A stretch of DNA of 36,275 nt from Pseudomonadota bacterium (GCA_030596145.1 JAUVKS010000001.1:1-36275), one strand, 5' to 3'. Counted from the first letter of the stretch, positions 7,890 through 26,887 are shown. Notes: generated by a model from the letters alone, not told the origin. Numbers and translations are program-made.

Positions 7890-8393
7890 TTACAATAAAA
7901 CAAACTTAGTAAAATATATTTTTTTAATTATCTCATCATCCAACAAATTATTCAAGCTAATTTTAATTTCTTCTTTTAACCCCCTCCTGATTTCAGGCAA
8001 CTCCGAAGGATGAAAATCCCCCCTTACCCCCCTTTGGTAAAGGGGGGATGGGGGGATTTTTAAAAGCTCTTTCAATGTGTTATATATGATCTTTCTCAAC
8101 TCGATCCTCTTTTGCGGCAGTTTCATCCCTCGATTCAGTTCAATAACCACATCACAAATCAGAAACCTGTCCTTTTTATTATCATCTTTCAAATGAATAA
8201 TGAAGTCATTAAAATATTCAAACCTTTCTTCTGTAGAAAGAGTCTCTTGCGAACTTACTTCACAGAGCTCCTGACTCCTGACCTCCGACCCCGCCAGACT
8301 GACGGGGGGCAAGCTCTGACCTCCGATCTCTGGTCCTTGCCCCCTGACAGACCCGTTGCCTGCAAACAACGCAATGCACAGGCATACGGCCAT
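7890..8393 (-). CDS. FliL-like paralogue carrying two repeat-derived in-frame insertions
   Basis: C-terminus FLICDVVIELNRG...LKEEIKISLNNLLDDEIIKKIYFTKFVLL parallels FliL in this window (...RDEIAVRLNSYLTKGQVRRVYFTEFLIQ). Start chosen at ATG 8393 (MAVCLCIALFAG). The ORF-track start at 8447 adds an unrelated 18-aa fragment. Confidence 0.5.
   Translation of the reverse strand: MAVCLCIALFAGNGSVRGQGPEIGGQSLPPVSLAGSEVRSQELCEVSSQETLSTEERFEYFNDFIIHLKDDNKKDRFLICDVVIELNRGMKLPQKRIELRKIIYNTLKELLKIPPSPLYQRGVRGDFHPSELPEIRRGLKEEIKISLNNLLDDEIIKKIYFTKFVLL
8013..8060. repeat. 48-nt G/C-tract palindrome inserted in frame in the FliL-like CDS
   Basis: aaaatccccccttacccccctttggtaaaggggggatggggggatttt. A ~21-bp stem with one bulge; 16 codons (IPPSPLYQRGVRGDF). 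Confidence 0.9.
8280..8336. repeat. Dispersed GACCTCC/CCGCC-hairpin element inside the FliL-like CDS (copy of 26415-26500)
   Basis: gacctccgaccccgccagactgacggggggcaagctctgacctcc compared with 26415-26459: 43/45 identical. Confidence 0.9.
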
Positions 8394-8470
8394 CAAAACT
8401 CTGTATGCACAACCAATGATTTTCTCAGTCAATTCTCTGTGTTTCACTTATATGCCTTCATGAACTTATG

Positions 8471-16642: not shown

Positions 16643-17413
16643 TTAAGCAAAGCTTTGAACCAGCGAACCGATTATTAAATTCCACCCGTCAACCAGCACA
16701 AAAAGGAGTAGTTTGAACGGCAGGCTTATCATTATAGGCGGAAGCATCATCATTCCCATTGATAAAAGCACACTGGCAATGACCATATCCAGTATCAAAA
16801 AAGGGAGATAGATCATAAACCCGATTTGAAAAGCCGTCTTTAATTCACTGATTACAAAGGCGGGTATTAATACGGGAAGTTTGATCTCATCAGGTTTTTG
16901 GGGCCTTTCCCCCCTTGAAATTTTGACAAAGAGGGCAATATCTTTTTCTCCAGCCTGCTTTAACATAAATTCTTTTATGGGCTGCGCTGCCAGGTCAAAT
17001 GCTTTTTCAGCCGATATCTCTTCATTTATATACGGCTGCAACGCCTGAGAATTTACCTTATTCCAGACAGGGGTCATGATAAAAAAGGTCAGGAAGAGGG
17101 ATAATCCAATGATAATCTGGTTTGCAGGCATCTGCTGCGTACCCAGAGCATGCCTTAGAAGGGAAAGGACGACAACAATTCGAGTAAACGAAGTCAACAT
17201 TACAAGTATTGCGGGAGCAAGAGAAAGTATTGTAAAAAGAAACAACAGTTGCAGAACTACCGCTACCCTGCCTGGTTCATCACCGCCGTCCCCAGCATTC
17301 AAACTTATCGAGGGAATGGAAAATGATTGCCCCCACGAAGAGCCTGCAAAAAAAATGAGTCCAAAAACTACCAGGATGCATATAAGACATTTCCCGAATC
17401 TTGATGGTCTCAT
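16643..17413 (-). CDS. fliP: Export apparatus protein FliP
   Basis: Signal-like N-terminus, then SLAPAILVMLTSFTRIVVVLSLLRHALGTQQMPANQIIIGLSLFLTFFIMTPV. The ORF-track start at 17425 is TTG; ATG at 17413 preferred. Confidence 0.93.
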   Translation of the reverse strand: MRPSRFGKCLICILVVFGLIFFAGSSWGQSFSIPSISLNAGDGGDEPGRVAVVLQLLFLFTILSLAPAILVMLTSFTRIVVVLSLLRHALGTQQMPANQIIIGLSLFLTFFIMTPVWNKVNSQALQPYINEEISAEKAFDLAAQPIKEFMLKQAGEKDIALFVKISRGERPQKPDEIKLPVLIPAFVISELKTAFQIGFMIYLPFLILDMVIASVLLSMGMMMLPPIMISLPFKLLLFVLVDGWNLIIGSLVQSFA

Positions 17414-17484
17414 AAAAAGTGTCAATTTCAGACCTCGCTAAGTGGTTAAGTTTTGAAAGATGAACATAGAACATACTATTAAAA

Positions 17485-17526
17485 GATGAACGTCCAACAT
17501 CGAACATTGAACGTCGAACGTCGAAT
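17485..17526. repeat. Inverted partner of element I (CGAACG/CAACATCGAA motifs)
   Basis: gatgaacgtccaacatcgaacattgaacgtcgaacgtcgaat. 17489-17504 is the perfect reverse complement of 17636-17651. Confidence 0.9.
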
Positions 17527-17610
17527 AATGATGTCGCTCCGCTCCTCAAATTATGTTTGGTTCAGGGATATTTGGTTGCTGTTTTTACGACCTCCGACTT
17601 CTGGCCTCTG

Positions 17611-17707
17611 TTCCTTCATCTTTTCCCATTCAACATTCGATGTTGGACGTTCGATCTGGCTTCGCAAATGCTATGCCAAGACACGTGTTCGATGTTCATT
17701 TTTTTCA
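17611..17707. repeat. Dispersed element I, copy 1 (fliO-fliP spacer)
   Basis: ttccttcatcttttcccattcaacattcga[tgttggacgttcga]tctggcttcgcaaatgctatgccaagacacgtgttcgatgttcattttttt. Near-identical to 20341-20437 except for the position of a 14-nt module. Confidence 0.95.
17663..17678 (-). promoter_or_regulatory. Sigma-54 promoter candidate inside dispersed element I (copy 1), upstream of fliP
   Basis: Minus strand reads TGGCAT-AGCAT-TTGCG. Predicted +1 (~17652) coincides with one arm of a 16-bp perfect inverted repeat (17636-17651 / 17489-17504). Confidence 0.5.
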
Positions 17708-17711
17708 GGCC

Positions 17712-18068
17712 CTACTTCAACAGTCCCTTTAAATAACCGGAAAATGGAACACTTTTCCCTTTCTGTTCCTGAACTTCTTTCAGTTGTTCAAGAGATTCAG
17801 AATCCACAATTTCCGTCAACAGGGATATCTTGCTGCTTGAAACGCCGATCACCATAATATTGCCCAACACATCAATAAGCATTATACTGCTTTTGGCCCC
17901 CAGGTATTTAACAGACAAAGTCTTTATCAGTTCCCCGCCATTGATTACTCCTCCTCCCTTTTTCACGATTTTTTTAAACAGATACGCAACAACAATCATA
18001 ACGCCCACCGTAACGGCAAGAGCCGATATGATTTTCAAAAGAGAGTAAAATAATTCCGGTGAATTCAT
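17712..18068 (-). CDS. fliO: FliO-like small membrane protein
   Basis: 118 aa, single N-terminal TM segment (ISALAVTVGVMIVVAYLF). Sits between fliN and fliP. Confidence 0.7.
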   Translation of the reverse strand: MNSPELFYSLLKIISALAVTVGVMIVVAYLFKKIVKKGGGVINGGELIKTLSVKYLGAKSSIMLIDVLGNIMVIGVSSSKISLLTEIVDSESLEQLKEVQEQKGKSVPFSGYLKGLLK

Positions 18069-18084
18069 AGCGCTCCTCAGATAA

Positions 18085-18513
18085 CTACTTCAGCTTATCA
18101 ATCCTCTCGGCATGGGAGATAACATCCGTCAATCTGACCCCGAATTTCTCATTAACCACAACTACTTCACCCCTGGCAATCAATCGATTATTGACAAAGA
18201 CATCCATTGGTTCCCCTGCAAGCTTCGTTAACTCTACGACTGAACCCTGGCCTAACTGAAGAAGCTCGCTTATCAACATCCTTCCTCTGCCCAACTCAAC
18301 AGCCAGGGTAAGGGGTATGTCCAGAATAAAATCCATATCCAGCGACGCCTTCTTTGTTTCGCCTTTTTTCATTTCCTCGAACGTGACACTGTTTACTTCT
18401 TTTTTTTCAGCCGGCTTAGCAGATGCCTTCATCTCATCCTGGACATCGTCCCAGCCGATTTCTTCATCATTTTTTGTTTCTTTTACTTCTTCCGCCGACT
18501 CATTCTGTTCCAT
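18085..18513 (-). CDS. fliN: C-ring protein FliN
   Basis: SpoA domain LDIPLTLAVELGRGRMLISELLQLGQGSVVELTKLAGEPMDVFVNNRLIARGEVVVVNEKFGVRLTDV. ATG at 18513 is preceded by GAGGTG within the fliM end; the track start at 18537 is less likely. Confidence 0.92.
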   Translation of the reverse strand: MEQNESAEEVKETKNDEEIGWDDVQDEMKASAKPAEKKEVNSVTFEEMKKGETKKASLDMDFILDIPLTLAVELGRGRMLISELLQLGQGSVVELTKLAGEPMDVFVNNRLIARGEVVVVNEKFGVRLTDVISHAERIDKLK

Positions 18514-18514
18514 A

Positions 18515-19501
18515 TCAATACACCTCTTTCCCAACAATAAATTTTGATATTTCTACCGCCCGGTTGCCTTTATAAATTCCTGGCTGCCCCTTAAACTTAA
18601 GGACATCTTCCACATAAATATCCAGACTACTGCTGCAATATTGATCCAGGGGGATCACATCCCCCTTTTTCAGGTTTATAATTTCTCTACCACTCAGCTT
18701 TGTTCTGCCCAGCTCGACAGTCAGGTTCACTTTTGAACATCTAAGACCCTCCTTAAACCTGTACGCCCACTCTTTATCAACCTCCAGCCTATCCGCCTGA
18801 TAAGTTCCCTGCAATTTTTCCCTGATCGGCTCTATTGTCAAATAAGGTATGCAGAAAGTCATTATGCCCGAAGAAAATTCGAGGTCGATTTCAAATTGCG
18901 AAACAATCACGACATCGGTAGGCGCCACAATCTGCATAAACTGAGGATTGCTTTCCGATCTCTGATAGATAACATCAAGTTGTATAATTGCTTTCCACAC
19001 CTCTTTAAAATCAGACAGCACTTTCAACACAATCCTCTTTATTAGATTATTCTCTATGTTTGTAAAATCTCTTCCCTCAATTTTAAACCCCTCCCGCCCG
19101 GACCCTCCAAAAATAATATCAACCAGCGCAAATACCACTCGCGATTCAATGACAAGAAGTGAACTACCCTTTAATGGATCCATTTTAAAGGCATGGAGAC
19201 TCGCAGGTATGGGAATTGATTTTATAAATTCGCCATACTTGATCATGTCCACCGATAACGTATTTACATTAATAACTTTTCTTAACAATGATAAGAGGGT
19301 TGTCCTGAATATCCTGGCGAATTTTTCAGTTGTTATCTCCAGGGCAGGCATTCTCCCCCTAACGATTCTGTCCTGACCGGTTAAATCGTATTGCCGAACT
19401 GATGATGGATCATAAGTCTCCTCCTGTTCTGTCTCAATCTCACCATCCGATACCCCTGTTAAGAGTGCATCCACCTCTTCCTGTGATAATATCTGGGACA
19501 T
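18515..19501 (-). CDS. fliM: C-ring switch protein FliM
   Basis: N-terminal CheY-P-binding type motif SQILSQEEVDALL; 328 aa; C-terminal SpoA-like region; AAGGAG SD. Confidence 0.93.
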   Translation of the reverse strand: MSQILSQEEVDALLTGVSDGEIETEQEETYDPSSVRQYDLTGQDRIVRGRMPALEITTEKFARIFRTTLLSLLRKVINVNTLSVDMIKYGEFIKSIPIPASLHAFKMDPLKGSSLLVIESRVVFALVDIIFGGSGREGFKIEGRDFTNIENNLIKRIVLKVLSDFKEVWKAIIQLDVIYQRSESNPQFMQIVAPTDVVIVSQFEIDLEFSSGIMTFCIPYLTIEPIREKLQGTYQADRLEVDKEWAYRFKEGLRCSKVNLTVELGRTKLSGREIINLKKGDVIPLDQYCSSSLDIYVEDVLKFKGQPGIYKGNRAVEISKFIVGKEVY

Positions 19502-19517
19502 CTAAGTTGTCTCCTTA

Positions 19518-19611
19518 AAGGTTCAATGTTCAAGGTTCAGGGTTCAGGGTTCAGGGTTCAGGGTTCAGGGTTCAGTTTAACCTTGAACCTTGAACCTTTG
19601 AACCGTGAACG
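19518..19611. repeat. Family B hairpin (GGTTCAGG x5 facing an AACCTTG array), fliL-fliM spacer
   Basis: aaaggttcaatgttcaaggttcagggttcagggttcagggttcagggttcagggttcag ttt aaccttgaaccttgaacctttgaaccgtgaacg. Confidence 0.95.
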
Positions 19612-19612
19612 C

Positions 19613-20104
19613 TTACTGTATAAGAAATTCGGTAAAGTAAACCCTTCTGACCTGACCTTTAGTAAGATAGCTATTTAGACGCACAGCAATCTCGTCTCTG
19701 AGACGCTGTTTTCCCTCAAAGCCTGCTATCTCTTTATAGCTTTTTGATGAAAGGAGGCCTAAAATGCTGTCCGTAATTTTTGGCTTTAAAAGGTCCATCT
19801 CCGATATACAATCCTGATTAGATACTTCGATCTGAATCGTAGATTTTAAGTACCTTTCGCCGTTAGCATCCATTAAATTTACGATCAGGCTGCCCATGGA
19901 CCAGATGCCCGATTTTTGAACAATCTGTTCGCTGACTGCTTTTTCTGAACCGGAAGTGTGAGTCTTATAATACGTCCACCCCGCAAAACCTGCGGCCCCT
20001 AAAATCACTACACCAAAAAACACTACAATCCATTTAATGATTGATTTCTTGCCTTTTCCGGGTTCTTTTTCTTTAGATTCCTCTTCCTTTTCTTCTTTAA
20101 CCAT
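19613..20104 (-). CDS. fliL: Basal-body-associated protein FliL
   Basis: 163 aa. Lys/Glu-rich N-terminus, one TM segment, FliL core (LIVNLMDANGERYLKSTIQIEV...RVYFTEFLIQ). Confidence 0.88.
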   Translation of the reverse strand: MVKEEKEEESKEKEPGKGKKSIIKWIVVFFGVVILGAAGFAGWTYYKTHTSGSEKAVSEQIVQKSGIWSMGSLIVNLMDANGERYLKSTIQIEVSNQDCISEMDLLKPKITDSILGLLSSKSYKEIAGFEGKQRLRDEIAVRLNSYLTKGQVRRVYFTEFLIQ

Positions 20105-20126
20105 TACCGCTCCCTCCTCTTGATAT

Positions 20127-20336
20127 TGGTCGAGTGGTCAAGTAGTCAAGTAGTCGAGTGGTCATTGCGAGAAGTCCGCCGCAGGCGGATGGATTATCAA
20201 CATGTTTTGAGATTGCTTCGCTTCGCTCGCAATGACAATGCTGGGGTTTTTCAAATGTCTCGAATAACCAATCATCCATTTCCCCACTCGACCACTCAAC
20301 CATTTTCCTACTCGACTACTTCCCCACTCGACTATT
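20127..20336. repeat. Composite palindromic element: family A array, GTCATTGCGAG...CTCGCAATGAC palindrome, family A' array
   Basis: Forward A units at 20127-20163. An 11-bp perfect inverted repeat at 20161-20171 / 20225-20235 encloses tccgccgcaggcgga. Reverse A units at 20277-20336. Confidence 0.9.
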
Positions 20337-20340
20337 TCTG

Positions 20341-20437
20341 TTTCTTCATGTTTTCCCATTCAACATTCGATCTGGCTTCGCAAATGCTATGCCAAGACAC
20401 GTGTTGGACGTTCGGTGTTCGATGTTCATTTTTTTAA
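20341..20437. repeat. Dispersed element I, copy 2 (motB-fliL spacer; overlaps the motB stop)
   Basis: tttcttcatgttttcccattcaacattcgatctggcttcgcaaatgctatgccaagacacgtgt[tggacgttcggtgt]tcgatgttcattttttt. Confidence 0.95.
20379..20394 (-). promoter_or_regulatory. Sigma-54 promoter candidate inside dispersed element I (copy 2), upstream of fliL
   Basis: Minus strand reads TGGCAT-AGCAT-TTGCG. Identical to the site at 17663-17678. Confidence 0.5.
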
Positions 20438-21121
20438 TGTTAGGATGACCTCCACCCTTCTGTTGATGTTCCTGTTATGATCGCTCACATTCGGGAAAAG
20501 GGGTCTTGAGTCCGCATAACCTGCCGCAGAAAGCCTTTCCTGGAAAATGCCTCCTTCGGAAATGAAATATTTGACAACATTTACGGCCCGGGCCACTGAA
20601 AGCTCCCAGTTTGAAGGAAATCGTCTGTTACTTATAGGGACATCATCTGTATGTCCTTCTATACTTATTTGACAAACAGTCTTTTTAAGAATAGGACACA
20701 GGCCTCTGAGGGCAGGATTATTTCTTTTTTCAATTTCGGCCATACCTGTCTTAAATAACAGTTTTTCTCCAATTGTAACGGAAATACCCTCTTTTATTAC
20801 CCTTGCGTCCATTATGCCTTCAGGGCCGCCGAGCGCTTTGTTTATACGCCTGGCCAATTTTCTCTTTTTATTCTCAAATATCATGGCCTTATTTATTATA
20901 GGAATAACAAAGGGGGTAAAAATACTCACATCCTCTTTTTTTAGTTTCGGCATATTAAATACAGCTCTTACAGCATAAGATACCGTTGTCAGTTTAGATT
21001 TATCCATTTCTGAAAGCGAAAGAACTAAAACCAGGAATGTAAGCAAGAGCGTCACCATATCATTGAAGGTTGTGAGCCATTTCCCTCCTTTATCTTCTGA
21101 ATTTTTACACTTATTATTCAT
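20426..21121 (-). CDS. motB: Stator protein MotB (canonical, with TM Asp)
   Basis: KWLTTFNDMVTLLLTFLVLVLS carries the conserved channel Asp. C-terminal OmpA-like domain (IEGHTDDVPISNRRFPSNWELSVARA...NRRVEV). The track start at 21139 is TTG; ATG at 21121 preferred. Confidence 0.85.
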   Translation of the reverse strand: MNNKCKNSEDKGGKWLTTFNDMVTLLLTFLVLVLSLSEMDKSKLTTVSYAVRAVFNMPKLKKEDVSIFTPFVIPIINKAMIFENKKRKLARRINKALGGPEGIMDARVIKEGISVTIGEKLLFKTGMAEIEKRNNPALRGLCPILKKTVCQISIEGHTDDVPISNRRFPSNWELSVARAVNVVKYFISEGGIFQERLSAAGYADSRPLFPNVSDHNRNINRRVEVILTLKK

Positions 21122-21141
21122 CCAGTGCCCCAGGATCAATT

Positions 21142-21834
21142 CTATAATTCAAAATAAAATTCAACTCTCCGGTTTTCCCGTCTGCCTTCAGAAACATCAT
21201 TTGACGCGACCGGATGATATTGGCTGAACCCGACTGCGGCCAGCCTATCCGCTGAAAGTTCTCCTTTCTCAAGGAGATACCGCAGGATATTGACCGCCCG
21301 GGTAGTCGAAAGTTCCCAGTTCGACGGGAACTCGGAAGTAGCTATCGGAACATTATCGGTATGACCTTCCACCCTTACAGAGAAAGGGTTATTTCGCGCT
21401 ATCTTTATCATCTCATCAAGACACGGATATGCCTCTTTATTTATTTCAGCTACTCCTGATGGAAACAATACATTGCTTCCAAAAATAACTATAAACCCTT
21501 TCTCGATTTTTTTTATGTTGACCGATTCGTTTAGACCTGCCTTTCTGAGATATTTCCATAGGGATTTGATGGCCGGTTCGGCAAATTCACCTTGATCTTC
21601 CGAAATATCCTTCGAGAGTTTCAGTATATTATTGCCTTTATCAAGCTTACGATCTTCAGTGATCGACTCCTCCCTTTGTTGAAAGTTAGCTATTTTATCT
21701 TCTTTGATGGTTGAATAGGACACAAGCATGGCAAAAAGAGCCACTATAATCAGCACGAGAGAACAGTATATCATCTCCCAGCCTGCAGCCGGGGTCTCTT
21801 TTTTCTCGTTGCTCTTTCTTGATTCCTCTTCCAT
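21142..21834 (-). CDS. MotB-like OmpA-domain protein lacking the canonical TM Asp
   Basis: TM region GWEMIYCSLVLIIVALFAMLV has Ser where MotB has Asp. OmpA-like C-terminus (VEGHTDNVPIATSEFPSNWELSTTRA...NRRVEF). The track start at 21858 (TTG) lies in a repeat; ATG at 21834 preferred. Confidence 0.7.
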   Translation of the reverse strand: MEEESRKSNEKKETPAAGWEMIYCSLVLIIVALFAMLVSYSTIKEDKIANFQQREESITEDRKLDKGNNILKLSKDISEDQGEFAEPAIKSLWKYLRKAGLNESVNIKKIEKGFIVIFGSNVLFPSGVAEINKEAYPCLDEMIKIARNNPFSVRVEGHTDNVPIATSEFPSNWELSTTRAVNILRYLLEKGELSADRLAAVGFSQYHPVASNDVSEGRRENRRVEFYFEL

Positions 21835-21838
21835 ATTT

Positions 21839-21966
21839 AGCTTCGCTTCGCTTCGCAAGTGGTCAAGTGGTTGAGTGGTCGAGTAGTTAAATAGTCGAGT
21901 CGTCGAGTGGGGAAATAGTCGAATGGGAATTAGTCAACCACTCGACCACTTGACCACTCGACTAAA
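21839..21966. repeat. GCTTCGC triplet plus a family A hairpin (motA / motB-like spacer)
   Basis: gcttcgcttcgcttcgc, then agtggtcaagtggttgagtggtcgagtagttaaatagtcgagtcgtcgagtgg ... tagtcaaccactcgaccacttgaccactcgac. Confidence 0.9.
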
Positions 21967-21976
21967 TTCCAAGACG

Positions 21977-22738
21977 TTAAAACACAGTTTTTCTCTTCTC
22001 AGGCGATATAAAAGAATGGAGCTTATCTTCCAGCACCCTTGGATTGTCTCCTGACTGGATAGAAAGGATACCGCTTATCATCAACTGCTTTTGCATAAGT
22101 TCGCTGCTGCTTCGTGTCTTCAGTTTGCCTGCGGCCGGCAGGAAAACCAGATTTGCCAGGATTACACCATAAAAAGTGGTTACAAGGGCAATAGCCATGG
22201 CCGGTCCTATGGAAGACGGATCATCCATTTGAACCAGCATCTTTATCAATCCTATCAGGGTTCCCACCATACCCATAGCCGGCGCAAAATTCCCCATGGT
22301 TGTAAATATCTCCGCTCCCAGCCTGTGCCTTTCGGAAATGTATTCAAGCTCTGTATTAAGAATTCTGGAAAGGATAACCGGTTCAACGCCATCTATCATC
22401 AACATCATCCCTTTGGCAAAGAAGGAATCTTTAACATCTTCCACCTTGTCCTCCAGGGCCAGTATCCCGTCACGCCGGGCAATCTTTGACATATCCAGCA
22501 GCATTTCTATTATTTTTTCCGTTTCCAACTTTTTCCGGAAAAATACATGTTTTGCTACCTTTGCCACCCCAAGCATATCTGATATGGGATAATTAATAAG
22601 AACGGCGCCAAAAGTCCCGCCCAGGACAATCATTGCAGAGGGGGCATTTACAAACCACGATGCTCCGCCGCCCATAGTTATGGCGCCGACTACAAGGCCA
22701 AATCCGATTATAATTCCTAAAAGAGTTGATATATCCAT
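21977..22738 (-). CDS. motA: Stator protein MotA
   Basis: MDISTLLGIIIGFGLV...; MotA/TolQ/ExbB channel motif APAMGMVGTLIGLIKML...ALVTTFYGVILANLVFLPAAGKL. The track start at 22759 is TTG inside a promoter-like site; ATG at 22738 preferred. Confidence 0.9.
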   Translation of the reverse strand: MDISTLLGIIIGFGLVVGAITMGGGASWFVNAPSAMIVLGGTFGAVLINYPISDMLGVAKVAKHVFFRKKLETEKIIEMLLDMSKIARRDGILALEDKVEDVKDSFFAKGMMLMIDGVEPVILSRILNTELEYISERHRLGAEIFTTMGNFAPAMGMVGTLIGLIKMLVQMDDPSSIGPAMAIALVTTFYGVILANLVFLPAAGKLKTRSSSELMQKQLMISGILSIQSGDNPRVLEDKLHSFISPEKRKTVF

Positions 22739-22754
22739 TCTGGGGTTATGGAAA

Positions 22755-22770
22755 AGCAAAGAATGTGCCA
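22755..22770 (-). promoter_or_regulatory. Sigma-54 promoter candidate abutting the motA start
   Basis: Minus strand reads TGGCAC-ATTCT-TTGCT, a perfect match to core consensus. The predicted +1 (~22744) would leave only ~6 nt before the motA ATG at 22738. Confidence 0.45.
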
Positions 22771-23072
22771 GAAGGATTGGGGGTTAGAGTGTGAGAAGGT
22801 TAGAAGGGAAGAGGGTGAGAAGGTAGGAAGGTAAGAGGGTAGGAAGAGCAGAAGGGAAGAGGGTGATAGGATTAGGGGATTAGAAGGTTAGAGGGGAAGA
22901 GGGTGAGAAGTTTTGTTTTTGAGTTCTTTACTAACCTTCTAACCTTCTGATCTTCTAACTTTCTGTTTTTGACGGGTCGTCAGAAATTTGACACATAACT
23001 ACTCAGATTGTCAGGTTCACAGTTCTCTAACCTTGAACCTTGAACCGTGAACCCTTGAACCGTGAACCTAAG
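22771..23072. repeat. Long purine-rich family C' tract (~145 nt), short C arm, then family B' units (flgE-motA spacer)
   Basis: gaaggattgggggttagagtgtgagaaggttagaagggaagagggtgagaaggtaggaagg... facing taaccttctaaccttctgatcttctaac. Then aaccttgaaccttgaaccgtgaacccttgaaccgtgaacc. Confidence 0.9.
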
Positions 23073-23078
23073 TAATAT

Positions 23079-24335
23079 TTATCTCTTGATGTTCATCAGC
23101 TCGGACATCATCTGATCGGTGGTTGTGATGACTTTGGCATTGGCCTGGTACGCCCTTTGGGCAGTGATCATATTGATAAATTCCGTGGCGATATCGGCGT
23201 TCGACATCTCAAGAGAGTTGGGGCTGATCTCACCCAATCCGCCTCTTCCAGGTGCGTTTATGACCGCGGCGCCCGAATTTATCGTGGTGGCGAACAGATT
23301 GGACCCCATTTTATTCAATCCCCCGGGACTCGCAAACTTTGCCAGGGCAATCTGTCCTATTTCCGCAGTCTGCCCATTTGAGAACAAACCCTGGATGATC
23401 CCATCGCCTCCTATTGACAGACCCTGCAACTCGCCCGAGGCATGACCATTACAGACAAGACTCCTGTTGACCGAGGGACTGGCATAACCTGTCATTGTCT
23501 CGGCAGGCTCATCGGTATCGGTTACAGCGTCCTTCAGATCCCAGTTGATTGTACCGGAATCACCGATGCCGATGGTGGCGTCACCCGGCAAGAGGCCTGT
23601 GACGGTAATATCTATATCGGTTGTAGCAGGATCAAGTTTTCCATCTCCATCAAAACCAATGATGGCTGGATCTAAGGCTATTGTGGCAGTGCCCAGGTCC
23701 GACATGTCAACCGCTATAGACCATTCACCAACAGATGGAAGTGGTGCTTTCGTAAAGGTCAACGTAAGCGTATGCCCGGCCCCTAACGAATCATAGACAG
23801 TTAGCGCGGAAACAAAGGTATCACCCTTAGCAGCCTCCCCATTGAGATTTGCGCCTATGGAAACTCTGGTTGTAGCTATCGGATCTGACTGAACGCCGCC
23901 CATAGAGATGTCTCCGATCACATTTGTAGAAACGCCGTTCTCATAAGTATATCCCTGAACTCTGTAACCATTTACATCCACGAGATACTCGGTCTTATCC
24001 ACAGTGAACATACCTGCTCTGGTATAATAGGTGGCGCCTTCAGTATCGTTAACCATAAAAAATCCTTCTCCATTTATTGCAAGATCAGTGGCGCTCTGCG
24101 TACTCATAAATGAACCCTGCCCAAAAAGAGTGGGAACCGCAGTCACCCCTACACCGCGTCCTATCTGCATTGCTCCAGAACCTCCGGCAATGCTCTGGCT
24201 TAAGATATCGCCAAAAACCATGGTTCCTGCCTTAAAACCAACAGTATTGATATTGGCTATATTATTGCCTATGACATCCATCTGTTGTGAACTGGCATTT
24301 AAGCCTGATACTCCCGAAAATAATGAGCTTCCCAT
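23079..24335 (-). CDS. flgE: Hook protein FlgE
   Basis: MGSSLFSGVSGLNASSQQMDVIGNNIANINTVGFK...LEMSNADIATEFINMITAQRAYQANAKVI; 418 aa; AAGGAGG SD. Confidence 0.93.
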   Translation of the reverse strand: MGSSLFSGVSGLNASSQQMDVIGNNIANINTVGFKAGTMVFGDILSQSIAGGSGAMQIGRGVGVTAVPTLFGQGSFMSTQSATDLAINGEGFFMVNDTEGATYYTRAGMFTVDKTEYLVDVNGYRVQGYTYENGVSTNVIGDISMGGVQSDPIATTRVSIGANLNGEAAKGDTFVSALTVYDSLGAGHTLTLTFTKAPLPSVGEWSIAVDMSDLGTATIALDPAIIGFDGDGKLDPATTDIDITVTGLLPGDATIGIGDSGTINWDLKDAVTDTDEPAETMTGYASPSVNRSLVCNGHASGELQGLSIGGDGIIQGLFSNGQTAEIGQIALAKFASPGGLNKMGSNLFATTINSGAAVINAPGRGGLGEISPNSLEMSNADIATEFINMITAQRAYQANAKVITTTDQMMSELMNIKR

Positions 24336-24360
24336 TTTTTATTACCTCCTTCCTTTAATT

Positions 24361-24491
24361 GGTCAAGTAGTCGAGTGGTCGAGTGGTTGTTATTATTCAA
24401 GCAAATAATCCTTGGATGATCATACGATCTACTTTCCCTTTGAGTTTTCAGCTTTTACCTTTCAACTTTCAGCTTTGAGCTTTGAGCTTTT
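24361..24491. repeat. 37-nt family A element (same as 2311-2347) plus family G heptamers (GAGCTTT); flgD-flgE spacer
   Basis: ggtcaagtagtcgagtggtcgagtggttgttattatt; ctttgagttttcagcttttacctttcaactttcagctttgagctttgagcttttt. Confidence 0.9.
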
Positions 24492-24497
24492 TATCCT

Positions 24498-25139
24498 TTA
24501 TCCCGATTCATTCACAGAAATGATATCCCCAAAGGAAATATCCTGTCCGTTAACGGAAAGATAAGGGGAACCTTCCTTAAATGTCACTCCTGTCACCTGT
24601 CCCGTTATTATTGTATAGACTGGTATTTCATCTCCATTGTCATCGATTGCTGATATCTCGAAGGTATAGTCGCCATGGGCAACATCACTGCAATCCCACG
24701 TAACTGAATTTTCTCCCTCCTGTTGACTTCCTAATTCGATGGTATCCACAAGATTGGCCTCTTCATCATAAATTTTGATGGTAACTTGTTCAGCGCTTTC
24801 TGATAAATTATAAGCAAACTCGGCAGATGGGCCCTCTACTTTGATGCCATCGCCTCTTGCGGTCACCTCCTTGCCGATGAGGTTTACCGATTGGGCATTA
24901 TTTAACGAAGACTGATAAAGATTCAGCACTTCCAGTTGAGTGTTCATATTGCTCAACTGTTCAAGGCTGGAGAATTGAGCAAGTTGCGCTGTAAAATCAG
25001 CGCCATCAAGGGGATTGAGAGGATCCTGATTCTGAAGCTGTGCTACCAGCATCTCAAGAAAATCATCCTTCCCCAGCGTGTCCGCTTGCAGAGATTGCAA
25101 ACTTTCATTACTACTACTATTAATACTTTCTATTGTCAT
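24498..25139 (-). CDS. flgD: Hook cap/assembly protein FlgD
   Basis: LGKDDFLEMLVAQLQNQDPLNPLDGADFTAQLAQFSSLEQL is the hallmark FlgD N-terminal motif; 213 aa. Confidence 0.92.
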   Translation of the reverse strand: MTIESINSSSNESLQSLQADTLGKDDFLEMLVAQLQNQDPLNPLDGADFTAQLAQFSSLEQLSNMNTQLEVLNLYQSSLNNAQSVNLIGKEVTARGDGIKVEGPSAEFAYNLSESAEQVTIKIYDEEANLVDTIELGSQQEGENSVTWDCSDVAHGDYTFEISAIDDNGDEIPVYTIITGQVTGVTFKEGSPYLSVNGQDISFGDIISVNESG

Positions 25140-25162
25140 TTCATACCCTCCTCAACTTGATA

Positions 25163-25280
25163 TTGGTCGAGTGGTCGAGTGGTTGACTACTCGACTATTT
25201 AGCGCCTGAACGAAAACTTCGATTTCTTATAGATCAAAAACTAACCTTGAACCGTAAACTGTGAACCGTAAACCGTTACC
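25163..25280. repeat. Family A hairpin plus B' units (fliK-flgD spacer)
   Basis: ttggtcgagtggtcgagtggttgactactcgactattt; aaccttgaaccgtaaactgtgaaccgtaaaccgttacc. Confidence 0.9.
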
Positions 25281-25281
25281 T

Positions 25282-26715
25282 TTACGCAAACAAACTGACA
25301 CGCCCGTCACTCCGGACGCTTGGGTTTTCTTCCTTAAACGATGAGGGGTCATGATTCAAGGAATCTTGTTCCCCCCCATGGTCTTCTTCGTTCCCTTCCC
25401 GATTTCTGCCTTCTCTAAATAATGTCTCATTCCGCCCGGAGCCGTAATTGCCGCCGTCCGGTTTTTCCTGAACAGATACATTTATGGTATCCGCGACCAA
25501 TCCATGATTGCGAAGAGAGCTTTTGAGACTTTCCACATTTGACTGTAATATCTGCCTGACATCATTATTTTCCGTCTGCAGGATAACATGCACTTTATTA
25601 TCCCTGACAAGCACATCCACATCCAGCGTGCCCAGACGGGGCGGGTTGAGCGTGATTCTTACCCTTCCTGGCTTCTTTACGCTGTTTGCAATCTGATTGA
25701 TCAAAGCCCGTGGTTCTACGTCGTAACTGTTCACGCTCTCATTGATGACTGCCGACCCGCTATCTGCATGAAAAGCGGTATGCTGATATCCCCCGGCAGA
25801 AAAATCCCTGTAAGATGGACGCTCCGGTGGTGAAGTCCCTCTATGAAGAATCCCCATAGCCTCTTCACCCTTAAGAGCCAAAGGTTTCAGTGAATTTCCG
25901 ATGCCATTTTTGCCGCCGCTGTCCGGCTCTACACTGCTCTTTGCTTTTACAACAACCGCATTCTTCAAACTGAACTTCAAAAGCCCCTGTTTCTCCTCCA
26001 TCTTTGCCTTCCGGCCATTGCCTTCTGTCCTATGGCCCCCGCCAGACTGACGGCGGTCAGGTCTGAGCAGGGCGTTGTTTATTCCGGCAATGTTCTTTCC
26101 ATTCTTAAAGAGAGCTGCATCGGTCTTTCCATTCATGATACCTGAGTCTAACGCCCGTTTCCCGAACGGGCCGATGAGGGCATCGGCCCCTACACGTACC
26201 TGAGCCTCATTCTTTCCGACAACCGCTTTAGCTTCACCCTTAAGAGCCAAAGGTTTCAGTGAATTTCCGATGCCATTTTTGCCGCCGCTGTCCGGCTCTA
26301 CACTGCTCTTTGCTTTTACAACAACCGCATTCTTCAAACTGAACTTCAAAAGTCCCGGAGCATCCACCATCTCTGCCCTCCCACCGGGGCGTAGGCCCCT
26401 ATGGGCCGGAGGCTGACCTCCGACCCCGCCAGACTGACGGCGGGCAAGCTCTGACCTCTGACCTCTGACCTCCGACCTCTGACCTCCGACCTCTGGTCCC
26501 CGGCCTTTCACAGGTAGCGATTGATTCGTTTTTTCCGTCTCTTGTGTCGTTATGCGGCATATCTGCCCCATCATACAAAAAAACGGCATCATCTGCTCCG
26601 GTTCCTTACCTGTCTGCCGTCGCACAGGCAGGCCGGTCTTCCTTTCCTGCAATTTTTCAGATGAGCCCAGAAGGCCGATGCCCTGTTTTAGATTCACCAG
26701 ATTAGACTCTATCAT
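25282..26715 (-). CDS. fliK: Hook-length control protein FliK (repeat-rich N-terminal/ruler half)
   Basis: C-terminal Flg_hook-type domain (RVRITLNPPRLGTLDVDVLVRDNKVHVILQTENNDVRQILQSNVESLKSSLRNHGL). Sits between ylxF-like and flgD. The N-terminal start is uncertain. Confidence 0.8.
   Translation of the reverse strand: MIESNLVNLKQGIGLLGSSEKLQERKTGLPVRRQTGKEPEQMMPFFCMMGQICRITTQETEKTNQSLPVKGRGPEVGGQRSEVRGQRSELARRQSGGVGGQPPAHRGLRPGGRAEMVDAPGLLKFSLKNAVVVKAKSSVEPDSGGKNGIGNSLKPLALKGEAKAVVGKNEAQVRVGADALIGPFGKRALDSGIMNGKTDAALFKNGKNIAGINNALLRPDRRQSGGGHRTEGNGRKAKMEEKQGLLKFSLKNAVVVKAKSSVEPDSGGKNGIGNSLKPLALKGEEAMGILHRGTSPPERPSYRDFSAGGYQHTAFHADSGSAVINESVNSYDVEPRALINQIANSVKKPGRVRITLNPPRLGTLDVDVLVRDNKVHVILQTENNDVRQILQSNVESLKSSLRNHGLVADTINVSVQEKPDGGNYGSGRNETLFREGRNREGNEEDHGGEQDSLNHDPSSFKEENPSVRSDGRVSLFA
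25863..25983. repeat. 121-bp perfect direct repeat inside fliK, copy 1
   Basis: cttcacccttaagagccaaaggtttcagtgaatttccgatgcc...caaactgaacttcaaaag is identical to 26232-26352. The offset is 369 nt, i.e. 123 codons. Confidence 0.95.
26232..26352. repeat. 121-bp perfect direct repeat inside fliK, copy 2
   Basis: Base-for-base identical to 25863-25983. Encodes GLLKFSLKNAVVVKAKSSVEPDSGGKNGIGNSLKPLALKGE twice. Confidence 0.95.
26415..26500. repeat. Dispersed GACCTCC/CCGCC-hairpin element with an expanded GACCTCT heptamer run, inside fliK
   Basis: gacctccgaccccgccagactgacggcgggcaagctctgacctctgacctctgacctccgacctctgacctccgacctctggtcc. A partial third copy lies at 26036-26068. Confidence 0.9.
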
Positions 26716-26754: not shown

Positions 26755-26887
26755 CAGCCACAAAGACACTAAGATTATATTATAATTTGGGAATTTAGGA
26801 ATTGAAGGATGTTGTCACTTTTAATTCCTCAATCCCCAAATCCCTCAATCCCTCAATTCGCAATTAAGCAAAGTGTCTTTGTGGCTG
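26755..26887. repeat. Nested hairpin: family F termini enclosing a family E hairpin (fliK leader)
   Basis: cagccacaaagacactaagat ... gggaatttaggaattgaagg ... cctcaatccccaaatccctcaatccctcaattcgcaattaagc ... aagtgtctttgtggctg. Confidence 0.9.

Follow-up and report, generated by a model that had tools for sequence, protein, structure and literature searches.

A perfect in-frame repeat in a flagellar hook-length control gene, best explained by gene conversion between old module copies

A perfect in-frame repeat inside a protein regarded as a 'molecular ruler' resembles a fresh lengthening of that ruler, and the fliK gene described here raises the question of whether it is one. The window, meaning the whole stretch of DNA that was analysed, is 36,275 nt long and comes from the assembly Pseudomonadota bacterium GCA_030596145.1, a metagenome-assembled genome (MAG) of 1.76 Mb in 227 contigs that is 80% complete. 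Within its fliK, positions 25863-25983 and 26232-26352 match at 121/121 nt with an offset of 369 nt, or 123 codons, that keeps the frame, and the 41-aa peptide GLLKFSLKNAVVVKAKSSVEPDSGGKNGIGNSLKPLALKGE is present twice in FliK, at aa 121 and aa 244. We refer to the repeated segment as the module, to its N-proximal copy as c1 and to its C-proximal copy as c2. An earlier reading of this DNA made from the sequence alone (the sequence-only reading) had reported the 121-bp identity and its in-frame offset, both of which were borne out base for base, and had proposed either that 123 codons were duplicated recently, which should lengthen the hook, or that this is a polymorphic length-tuning site. Our comparison with related genes leads to a different view, in which an old two-copy architecture was probably homogenised recently and the protein would have been slightly shortened.

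FliK proteins are secreted and bring growth of the flagellar hook to a stop. The gene had been called fliK, and this name is backed by the Flg_hook domain, the flagellar operon context, the AlphaFold2 fold and Foldseek matches in the PDB. Pfam PF02120 (Flg_hook) was found on the open reading frame at aa 344-420 with an E value of 7.5e-19 and 67.8 bits, against a gathering cut-off of 29.8. The gene order on the minus strand is fliH, fliI, a fliJ-like gene, an MgtE_N-type gene, fliK, flgD and flgE, and the order around fliK on the contigs of relatives is the same as that of the window. The N-terminus MIESNLVNLKQ is conserved among homologues, and for this reason a start codon downstream of the heptamer array was rejected. 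NCBIfam assigned no family to the window FliK, and a look-up of the exact 477-aa sequence gave no record. The same bin also contains a second syntenic flagellar cluster on contig C4:1-9917, with 73-85% nucleotide identity to window positions 16793-25920, and C4 terminates within module c2 of its fliK. This cluster comes either from a co-binned related species or is a paralogous cluster.

AlphaFold2 modelled FliK with a pLDDT of 80-93 at aa 331-421 and below 50 elsewhere, and aa 1-330 were predicted to have no secondary structure. Both module copies lie inside this N-terminal part predicted to be disordered, in agreement with their earlier placement in the 'ruler' region. The best PDB matches of the C-domain model in Foldseek were 2RRL (FliK C-domain, E 7.6e-5) and 5CUK (PscP switch domain), the latter with a TM score of 0.57 and an rmsd of 3.8. 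A PDB sequence-profile search with FliK gave no match, and a Pfam search at E values up to 5 found no family in the N-terminal 323 aa, including the repeated module. Near the N-terminus, the F45/C47 motif (PFFCMMG) is almost invariant among FliK homologues and could be a candidate gate-recognition motif for FliK export. The features of the gene are collected in the table below.

Table. Features of fliK in the window, with positions counted from the first letter of the window.
Feature	Position	Strand	Basis
fliK (flagellar hook-length control protein), 477 aa	25282..26715	-	ORF, Pfam PF02120, operon position, conserved N-terminus
T3S4 / Flg_hook switch domain (aa 344-420), only part predicted to fold	25456..25686	-	Pfam, AlphaFold2, Foldseek
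Module copy c2, C-proximal, aa 244-284, putative donor	25863..25983	-	Identical to c1; without insert, like L027 c2
Spacer between modules, aa 162-243, unique, not duplicated, poorly conserved	25984..26231	-	No counterpart downstream of c1's partner
GC hairpin CCGCCAGACTGACGGCGG, read RRQSGG, upstream of c2 in gene sense	26039..26056	-	Motif matching and translation
30-nt coding tandem repeat, two units (NGKTDAALFK / NGKNIAGINN), inside spacer	26073..26132	-	Family D11
Module copy c1, N-proximal, aa 121-161, putative conversion recipient	26232..26352	-	Identical to 25863-25983; flanks; no 45-nt insert
GC hairpin CCGCCAGACTGACGGCGG, second copy, read RRQSGG, upstream of c1 in gene sense	26426..26443	-	Motif matching and translation
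Heptanucleotide array CTCTGAC x 6.7 in fliK frame, read GQRSEVRGQRSE	26449..26495	-	Tandem Repeats Finder and translation

The edges of the repeat are sharp. Exact identity extends no further on either side, and without gaps the copies are similar at 88% out to 176 nt, with no similarity beyond; the 45-nt flanks of c1 and c2 on each side are only 56% alike. This is the longest exact direct non-tandem repeat within any contig of the 1.76-Mb assembly, the next non-tandem one being 67 nt, and a repeat of 121 nt cannot arise by chance. When the genome was searched with the module by BLAST, the sole further match was 58 nt long, 88% identical and located at the end of contig C4.

To place the two copies in time, we turned to related genes. 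A protein search with FliK returned 58 homologues, which belong to Desulfobacterales / Thermodesulfobacteriota MAGs where they are named, and fliK DNA was compared for seven of these genes. Both module copies are found in at least six related fliK genes of Desulfobacterales type that come from other metagenomes: two complete modules occur in P0002, P0004, P0007, P0009 and P0012, and the P0003/P0006 lineage likewise has the pair, although the P0006 contig begins inside c1 and the c2 of P0003 is truncated. One complete module and an extra N-half were seen in P0011, P0013, P0014 and P0016, and three N-halves of the module in P0021. In the relatives AEMADAPG stands before c1 and EAKAVV after it, c2 stands between AKMEEKQG and EETIKIPHRG, and the window flanks correspond to these, with window c2 running into EEAMGILHRG, orthologous to EETIKIPHRG. 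When fliK DNA of the window was aligned with that of the same-strain contig L021 and of five further lineages, c1 and c2 fell at the same locations in each of the four other lineages whose modules are both complete. The 45-nt flanks in the window are 64-93% identical to the same-position flank of relatives as opposed to 53-71% to the flank of the other copy, with one tie among these comparisons (c1 upstream against L026).

Inside the relatives, c1 and c2 are 93.4, 89.0, 91.2 and 91.9% identical (7-11% diverged), and 85% identical in the MAG L027. Divergence at the level of the relatives would put about 8-18 differences into 121 nt, where the window has 0. Relatives that have both copies together with distinct orthologous flanks share just 57-67% protein identity. 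Because both copies are present in relatives, diverged and at orthologous positions, the duplication is old; on these alignments it predates the split of the window lineage from several Desulfobacterales-type lineages. Genomes of the same family from other genera (L003, L005) are without the module and have their own unrelated repeats, and they are therefore of no use for dating the duplication. Diverged double copies in relatives are an outcome that the sequence-only reading had itself listed as speaking against a recent event, and the recent 123-codon duplication that it put forward loses its footing.

The module itself has the consensus LLKFSLKNAVAVKGKS...GGKNxIGNxLKxLGLxGE and is 40-59 aa long. 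Averaged over pairs of relatives, nucleotide identity reaches 89.5% for c1, 89.8% for c2 and 87.8% for the C-domain, compared with 57.6% for the linker before c1 and 66.6% for the spacer between the copies. Since the module is conserved like the C-domain and the linkers far less, we take it to be a conserved linear motif and a functional element in the predicted-disordered region, not ruler filler. The N-terminal part of Salmonella FliK has determinants that bind FlgD and FlgE (PMC6972891), and by analogy the module is a candidate hook- or cap-binding determinant.

The best explanation for the identity of the window copies is, in our judgement and at a probability of roughly 0.7, a recent intragenic gene conversion in which c2 was copied over c1 in a fliK that already had two copies. 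Gene conversion was one of three options that had been offered for the zero divergence, and it is the one best supported by shared derived states. The nearest other species is L027, a Desulfobacterales MAG from NCBI with a fliK that is nearly identical to the window fliK in its 3' half. Comparison with L027 c2 shows differences at 14/121 sites, and all 14 are common to both window copies. At least four states common to the window copies (AAAGCAAAG, AGCAGTG, AATGGCATC and TTGGCTCTT) are present in 0/15 other aligned module sequences, and the window modules are 100% identical to each other versus 82-91% to any other module. The indels give a similar picture: L027 keeps a 45-nt insert, TEKNTEKNSFIPVKN, in c1 that is missing in its c2, and both window copies are without this insert and have the same left boundary. 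Scanning metagenomes with a 31-mer specific to the window and spanning this deletion junction gave 0 hits, probably because sequences similar to the window are missing from the scanned set. A maximum likelihood tree of the modules (121-178 sites) had most supports below 70 and did not resolve grouping by position, and the conversion is argued here from flanks, indels and unique shared states rather than from this poorly resolved tree.

We propose that the ancestral fliK held two copies, c1 and c2, of a conserved linear motif of 40-59 aa, and that these copies were diverging. After the split from the L027 lineage, c2 would have been copied over c1 by non-reciprocal homologous recombination, presumably of the RecA type, with the direction of transfer judged from one close relative (L027). 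The conversion tract would span the whole module and end where homology ends. Such an event would have erased the divergence between c1 and c2 and removed about 15 codons that L027 c1 keeps, slightly shortening FliK and adding no codons, which is contrary to the lengthening by duplication that had been proposed. The 121-nt perfect direct repeat that results would now make it easier for unequal recombination to delete or add 123 codons in frame.

Near-identical tracts are also found in other lineages. L022/P0003 has 219 nt at 99% identity (L022:1193-1750), and internal repeats that are exact over 41 aa or more occur in 4/55 homologues, namely P0038 (99 aa, tandem), P0003 (72 aa), P0016 (51 aa) and the window (41 aa), each involving a different fliK tract. 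Homogenisation of internal tracts thus appears to recur within the clade. Concerted evolution by gene conversion of intragenic repeats is a general phenomenon in bacterial repeat-containing genes, and the window fliK is like it in having within-gene repeats that are closer to each other than to orthologues, shared derived changes and a sharp-edged tract. Most descriptions of it concern surface or antigenic proteins and tandem arrays, unlike the window fliK, and we found no description of gene conversion of fliK repeats in the literature searched.

A contig from another sample, L021 (JGI metagenome), matches the window at all fliK positions that align (100%), and its module copies are identical to each other over 115 nt. 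Its fliK differs from that of the window by -39, +120 and +7 nt. The 39-nt gap is located at the AGTTCAG motif before c1, and the 7-nt change is a duplication (AGTTCAG) at the start of c2 (L021:2375-2390) that frameshifts fliK. The +120 nt are in frame and belong to the 30-nt repeat (DGKTDAALFK), which has six units in L021:2098-2250 versus two in the window; this difference may be a true length polymorphism or may stem from assembly. The upstream half of L021 is about 96% identical to the window and has frame-breaking indels. We considered L021 as independent confirmation of the identity, but the indels at its module edges are probably assembly joins, with one repeat unitig used twice. Because the assembler probably reused one repeat node, and given the module-edge indels and the upstream half at about 96%, L021 was reduced to weak support.

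The same concern applies to the window, where the identity could be an assembly artefact in which the assembler merged similar copies or threaded one repeat node twice. The genome is a MAG in 227 contigs at 80% completeness, the identity is known from assembled contigs, and a de Bruijn assembler could have collapsed a small number of genuine mismatches between c1 and c2. The contigs of C4 and L027 both break inside the module, suggesting that assemblers struggle there, and the indels of L021 fall precisely at the module edge. Nevertheless, we consider an artefact unlikely. The short-read assemblies L023 (MEGAHIT k141) and L025 (SPAdes) keep the 7-11% divergence between copies, so homogenisation is no general outcome of assembly, and 121 nt is below common read lengths. 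In addition, the window-specific variant GGCTCTT is located 15 nt from the unique 3' flank of c1, and real k-mers must therefore join a window-type module to that flank. No alternative version of c1 was found by BLAST anywhere in the bin.

A recent tandem duplication of 369 nt (123 codons) that lengthened FliK would account for a period that is an exact multiple of three and for the zero divergence inside the 121 nt, and tandem duplication seems real elsewhere in the clade, as in P0038, where the 99-aa repeat has a period of 99. With such an origin, however, the whole 369-nt unit should match, and the identity covers 121/369 nt only, leaving 248/369 nt without a duplicate. Both copies are also present in P0002, P0004, P0007, P0009, P0012 and the P0003/P0006 lineage, making this origin highly improbable. 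We give as little credence to extreme purifying selection on the nucleotide sequence, acting on a DNA or RNA signal with no recombination involved. The module is about 90% conserved at the nucleotide level across species, like the catalytic domain, as would be expected under such selection, but selection cannot give lineage-specific substitutions and a deletion that are common to both copies and absent elsewhere. A search of Rfam at E values up to 1 found no family inside fliK, and the copies are direct repeats that form no RNA helix. Conversion of c1 by c2 is the reading we prefer over these three.

Several other repeats are found in and around fliK. The GC hairpin CCGCCAGACTGACGGCGG has 3 matches in the window versus 0.01 expected by chance, and the statement that a hairpin-derived RRQSGG segment precedes each module copy was accurate, with the hairpin at 26039 and 26426. 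The CTCTGAC heptamer array in fliK is of the same type as the arrays filling intergenic gaps of this genome, and its frame is kept only by changes of three units; heptamer arrays at the same place in the fliK of relatives have other lengths. The hairpin and heptamers of fliK (26413-26467) recur at 8278-8332 with 94.5% identity, inside a FliL-like ORF (7890-8447, minus strand; Pfam FliL, E 2.2e-7), where they are in another reading frame than in fliK and stand directly after the hydrophobic N-terminal segment. The hairpin-heptamer element looks like repeat DNA that is tolerated in frame in linker regions. A 31-nt hairpin unit, CAGAGCTTGCCCGCCGTCAGTCTGGCGGGGT, is present in tandem inside the fliK of relatives P0002 and P0003 (L024:1665-1726, L022), and in P0003 the hairpin core is read successively in all three frames as PPSVWR, PAVSLAG and RRQSGG; three units of 31 nt amount to 93 nt, which keeps the frame. 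Upstream of fliK, in a gap of 300 nt, there is a long imperfect inverted repeat (26755-26887) with 56-nt arms that are 71% complementary. Three weak Rfam matches upstream of fliK were to plant-miRNA models on this long hairpin, with E values of 0.11-0.5 and scores far below the gathering score, and they are spurious.

The complete FliK homologues sampled range from 365 to 712 aa. P0002, P0007 and P0012 have 546-568 aa and two modules, and their close relatives P0015 and P0022 have one module. In P0015 (407 aa) the single module is a hybrid with the 5' flank of c1 and the 3' flank of c2, matching, as expected, the product of unequal recombination, while P0022 (409 aa) has one module and is joined within the heptamer/hairpin linker. 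These differences in module copy number all come from short metagenome contigs, in which assembly collapse is possible. In this clade fliK seems to be reshaped often by recombination between its internal repeats, and FliK length may plausibly change through recombination at the module. The earlier suggestion of a polymorphic length-tuning site keeps some indirect backing: relatives with one, two or three modules and the in-frame indels of L021 would fit length polymorphism, but they are drawn from short metagenome contigs and from repeats prone to mis-assembly.

A more far-reaching possibility is that the 121-nt repeat, the 30-nt repeat and the heptamer array together make up a 'contingency locus' that works by recombination and slippage, which we regard as quite unlikely. 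If true, cells would switch among one-, two- and three-module FliK, or switch off by 7-nt frameshifts, giving heritable diversity in hook length or flagellation, and conversion that recurs would maintain the identity of the repeats and with it the working of the switch.

[quoted passage not shown] Like FliK, YscP is a secreted length-control protein of a type III secretion system (T3SS) with a C-terminal T3S4 switch domain, and the window C-domain model matches PscP 5CUK, which is homologous to the YscP switch domain. For YscP, PMC3469391, with reference to Wagner et al. 2009, describes repeats of 14, 25 and 46 aa in the N-terminal/central region, varying in number between strains and giving proteins of 452, 515 and 538 aa. 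The window protein differs in that it is a flagellar FliK and no injectisome ruler, and in that it has two dispersed copies 123 codons apart and no tandem array. Where YscP changes in copy number, the feature in the window would be one of old copies that were homogenised. We take this to be ordinary repeat evolution with no new principle.

Salmonella FliK is divided into a ruler (1-207), a linker (208-267) and a C-terminal switch domain (268-405; PDB 2RRL). Its domain plan, disordered at the N-terminal end and with a folded Flg_hook/T3S4 domain at the C-terminal end, is like the one predicted for the window FliK, and flgD and flgE are likewise in its gene neighbourhood. The N-terminal 330 aa of the window FliK have no detectable sequence similarity to Salmonella FliK. 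To our knowledge, a duplicated motif has not been described in Salmonella FliK. The role of FliK length in setting hook length is itself debated, and deletions in the N-terminal part of Salmonella FliK did not shorten hooks (bioRxiv 10.1101/2020.03.25.007062).

What is distinctive about this locus is that conversion probably homogenised old copies where a fresh expansion had been assumed. For the Desulfobacterales-type clade, the predicted-disordered N-terminal part of FliK has a motif that is conserved like the catalytic domain and is usually present twice. The fliK of this clade appears to gain, lose and homogenise internal segments repeatedly, and it may offer natural material for testing FliK length against hook length.
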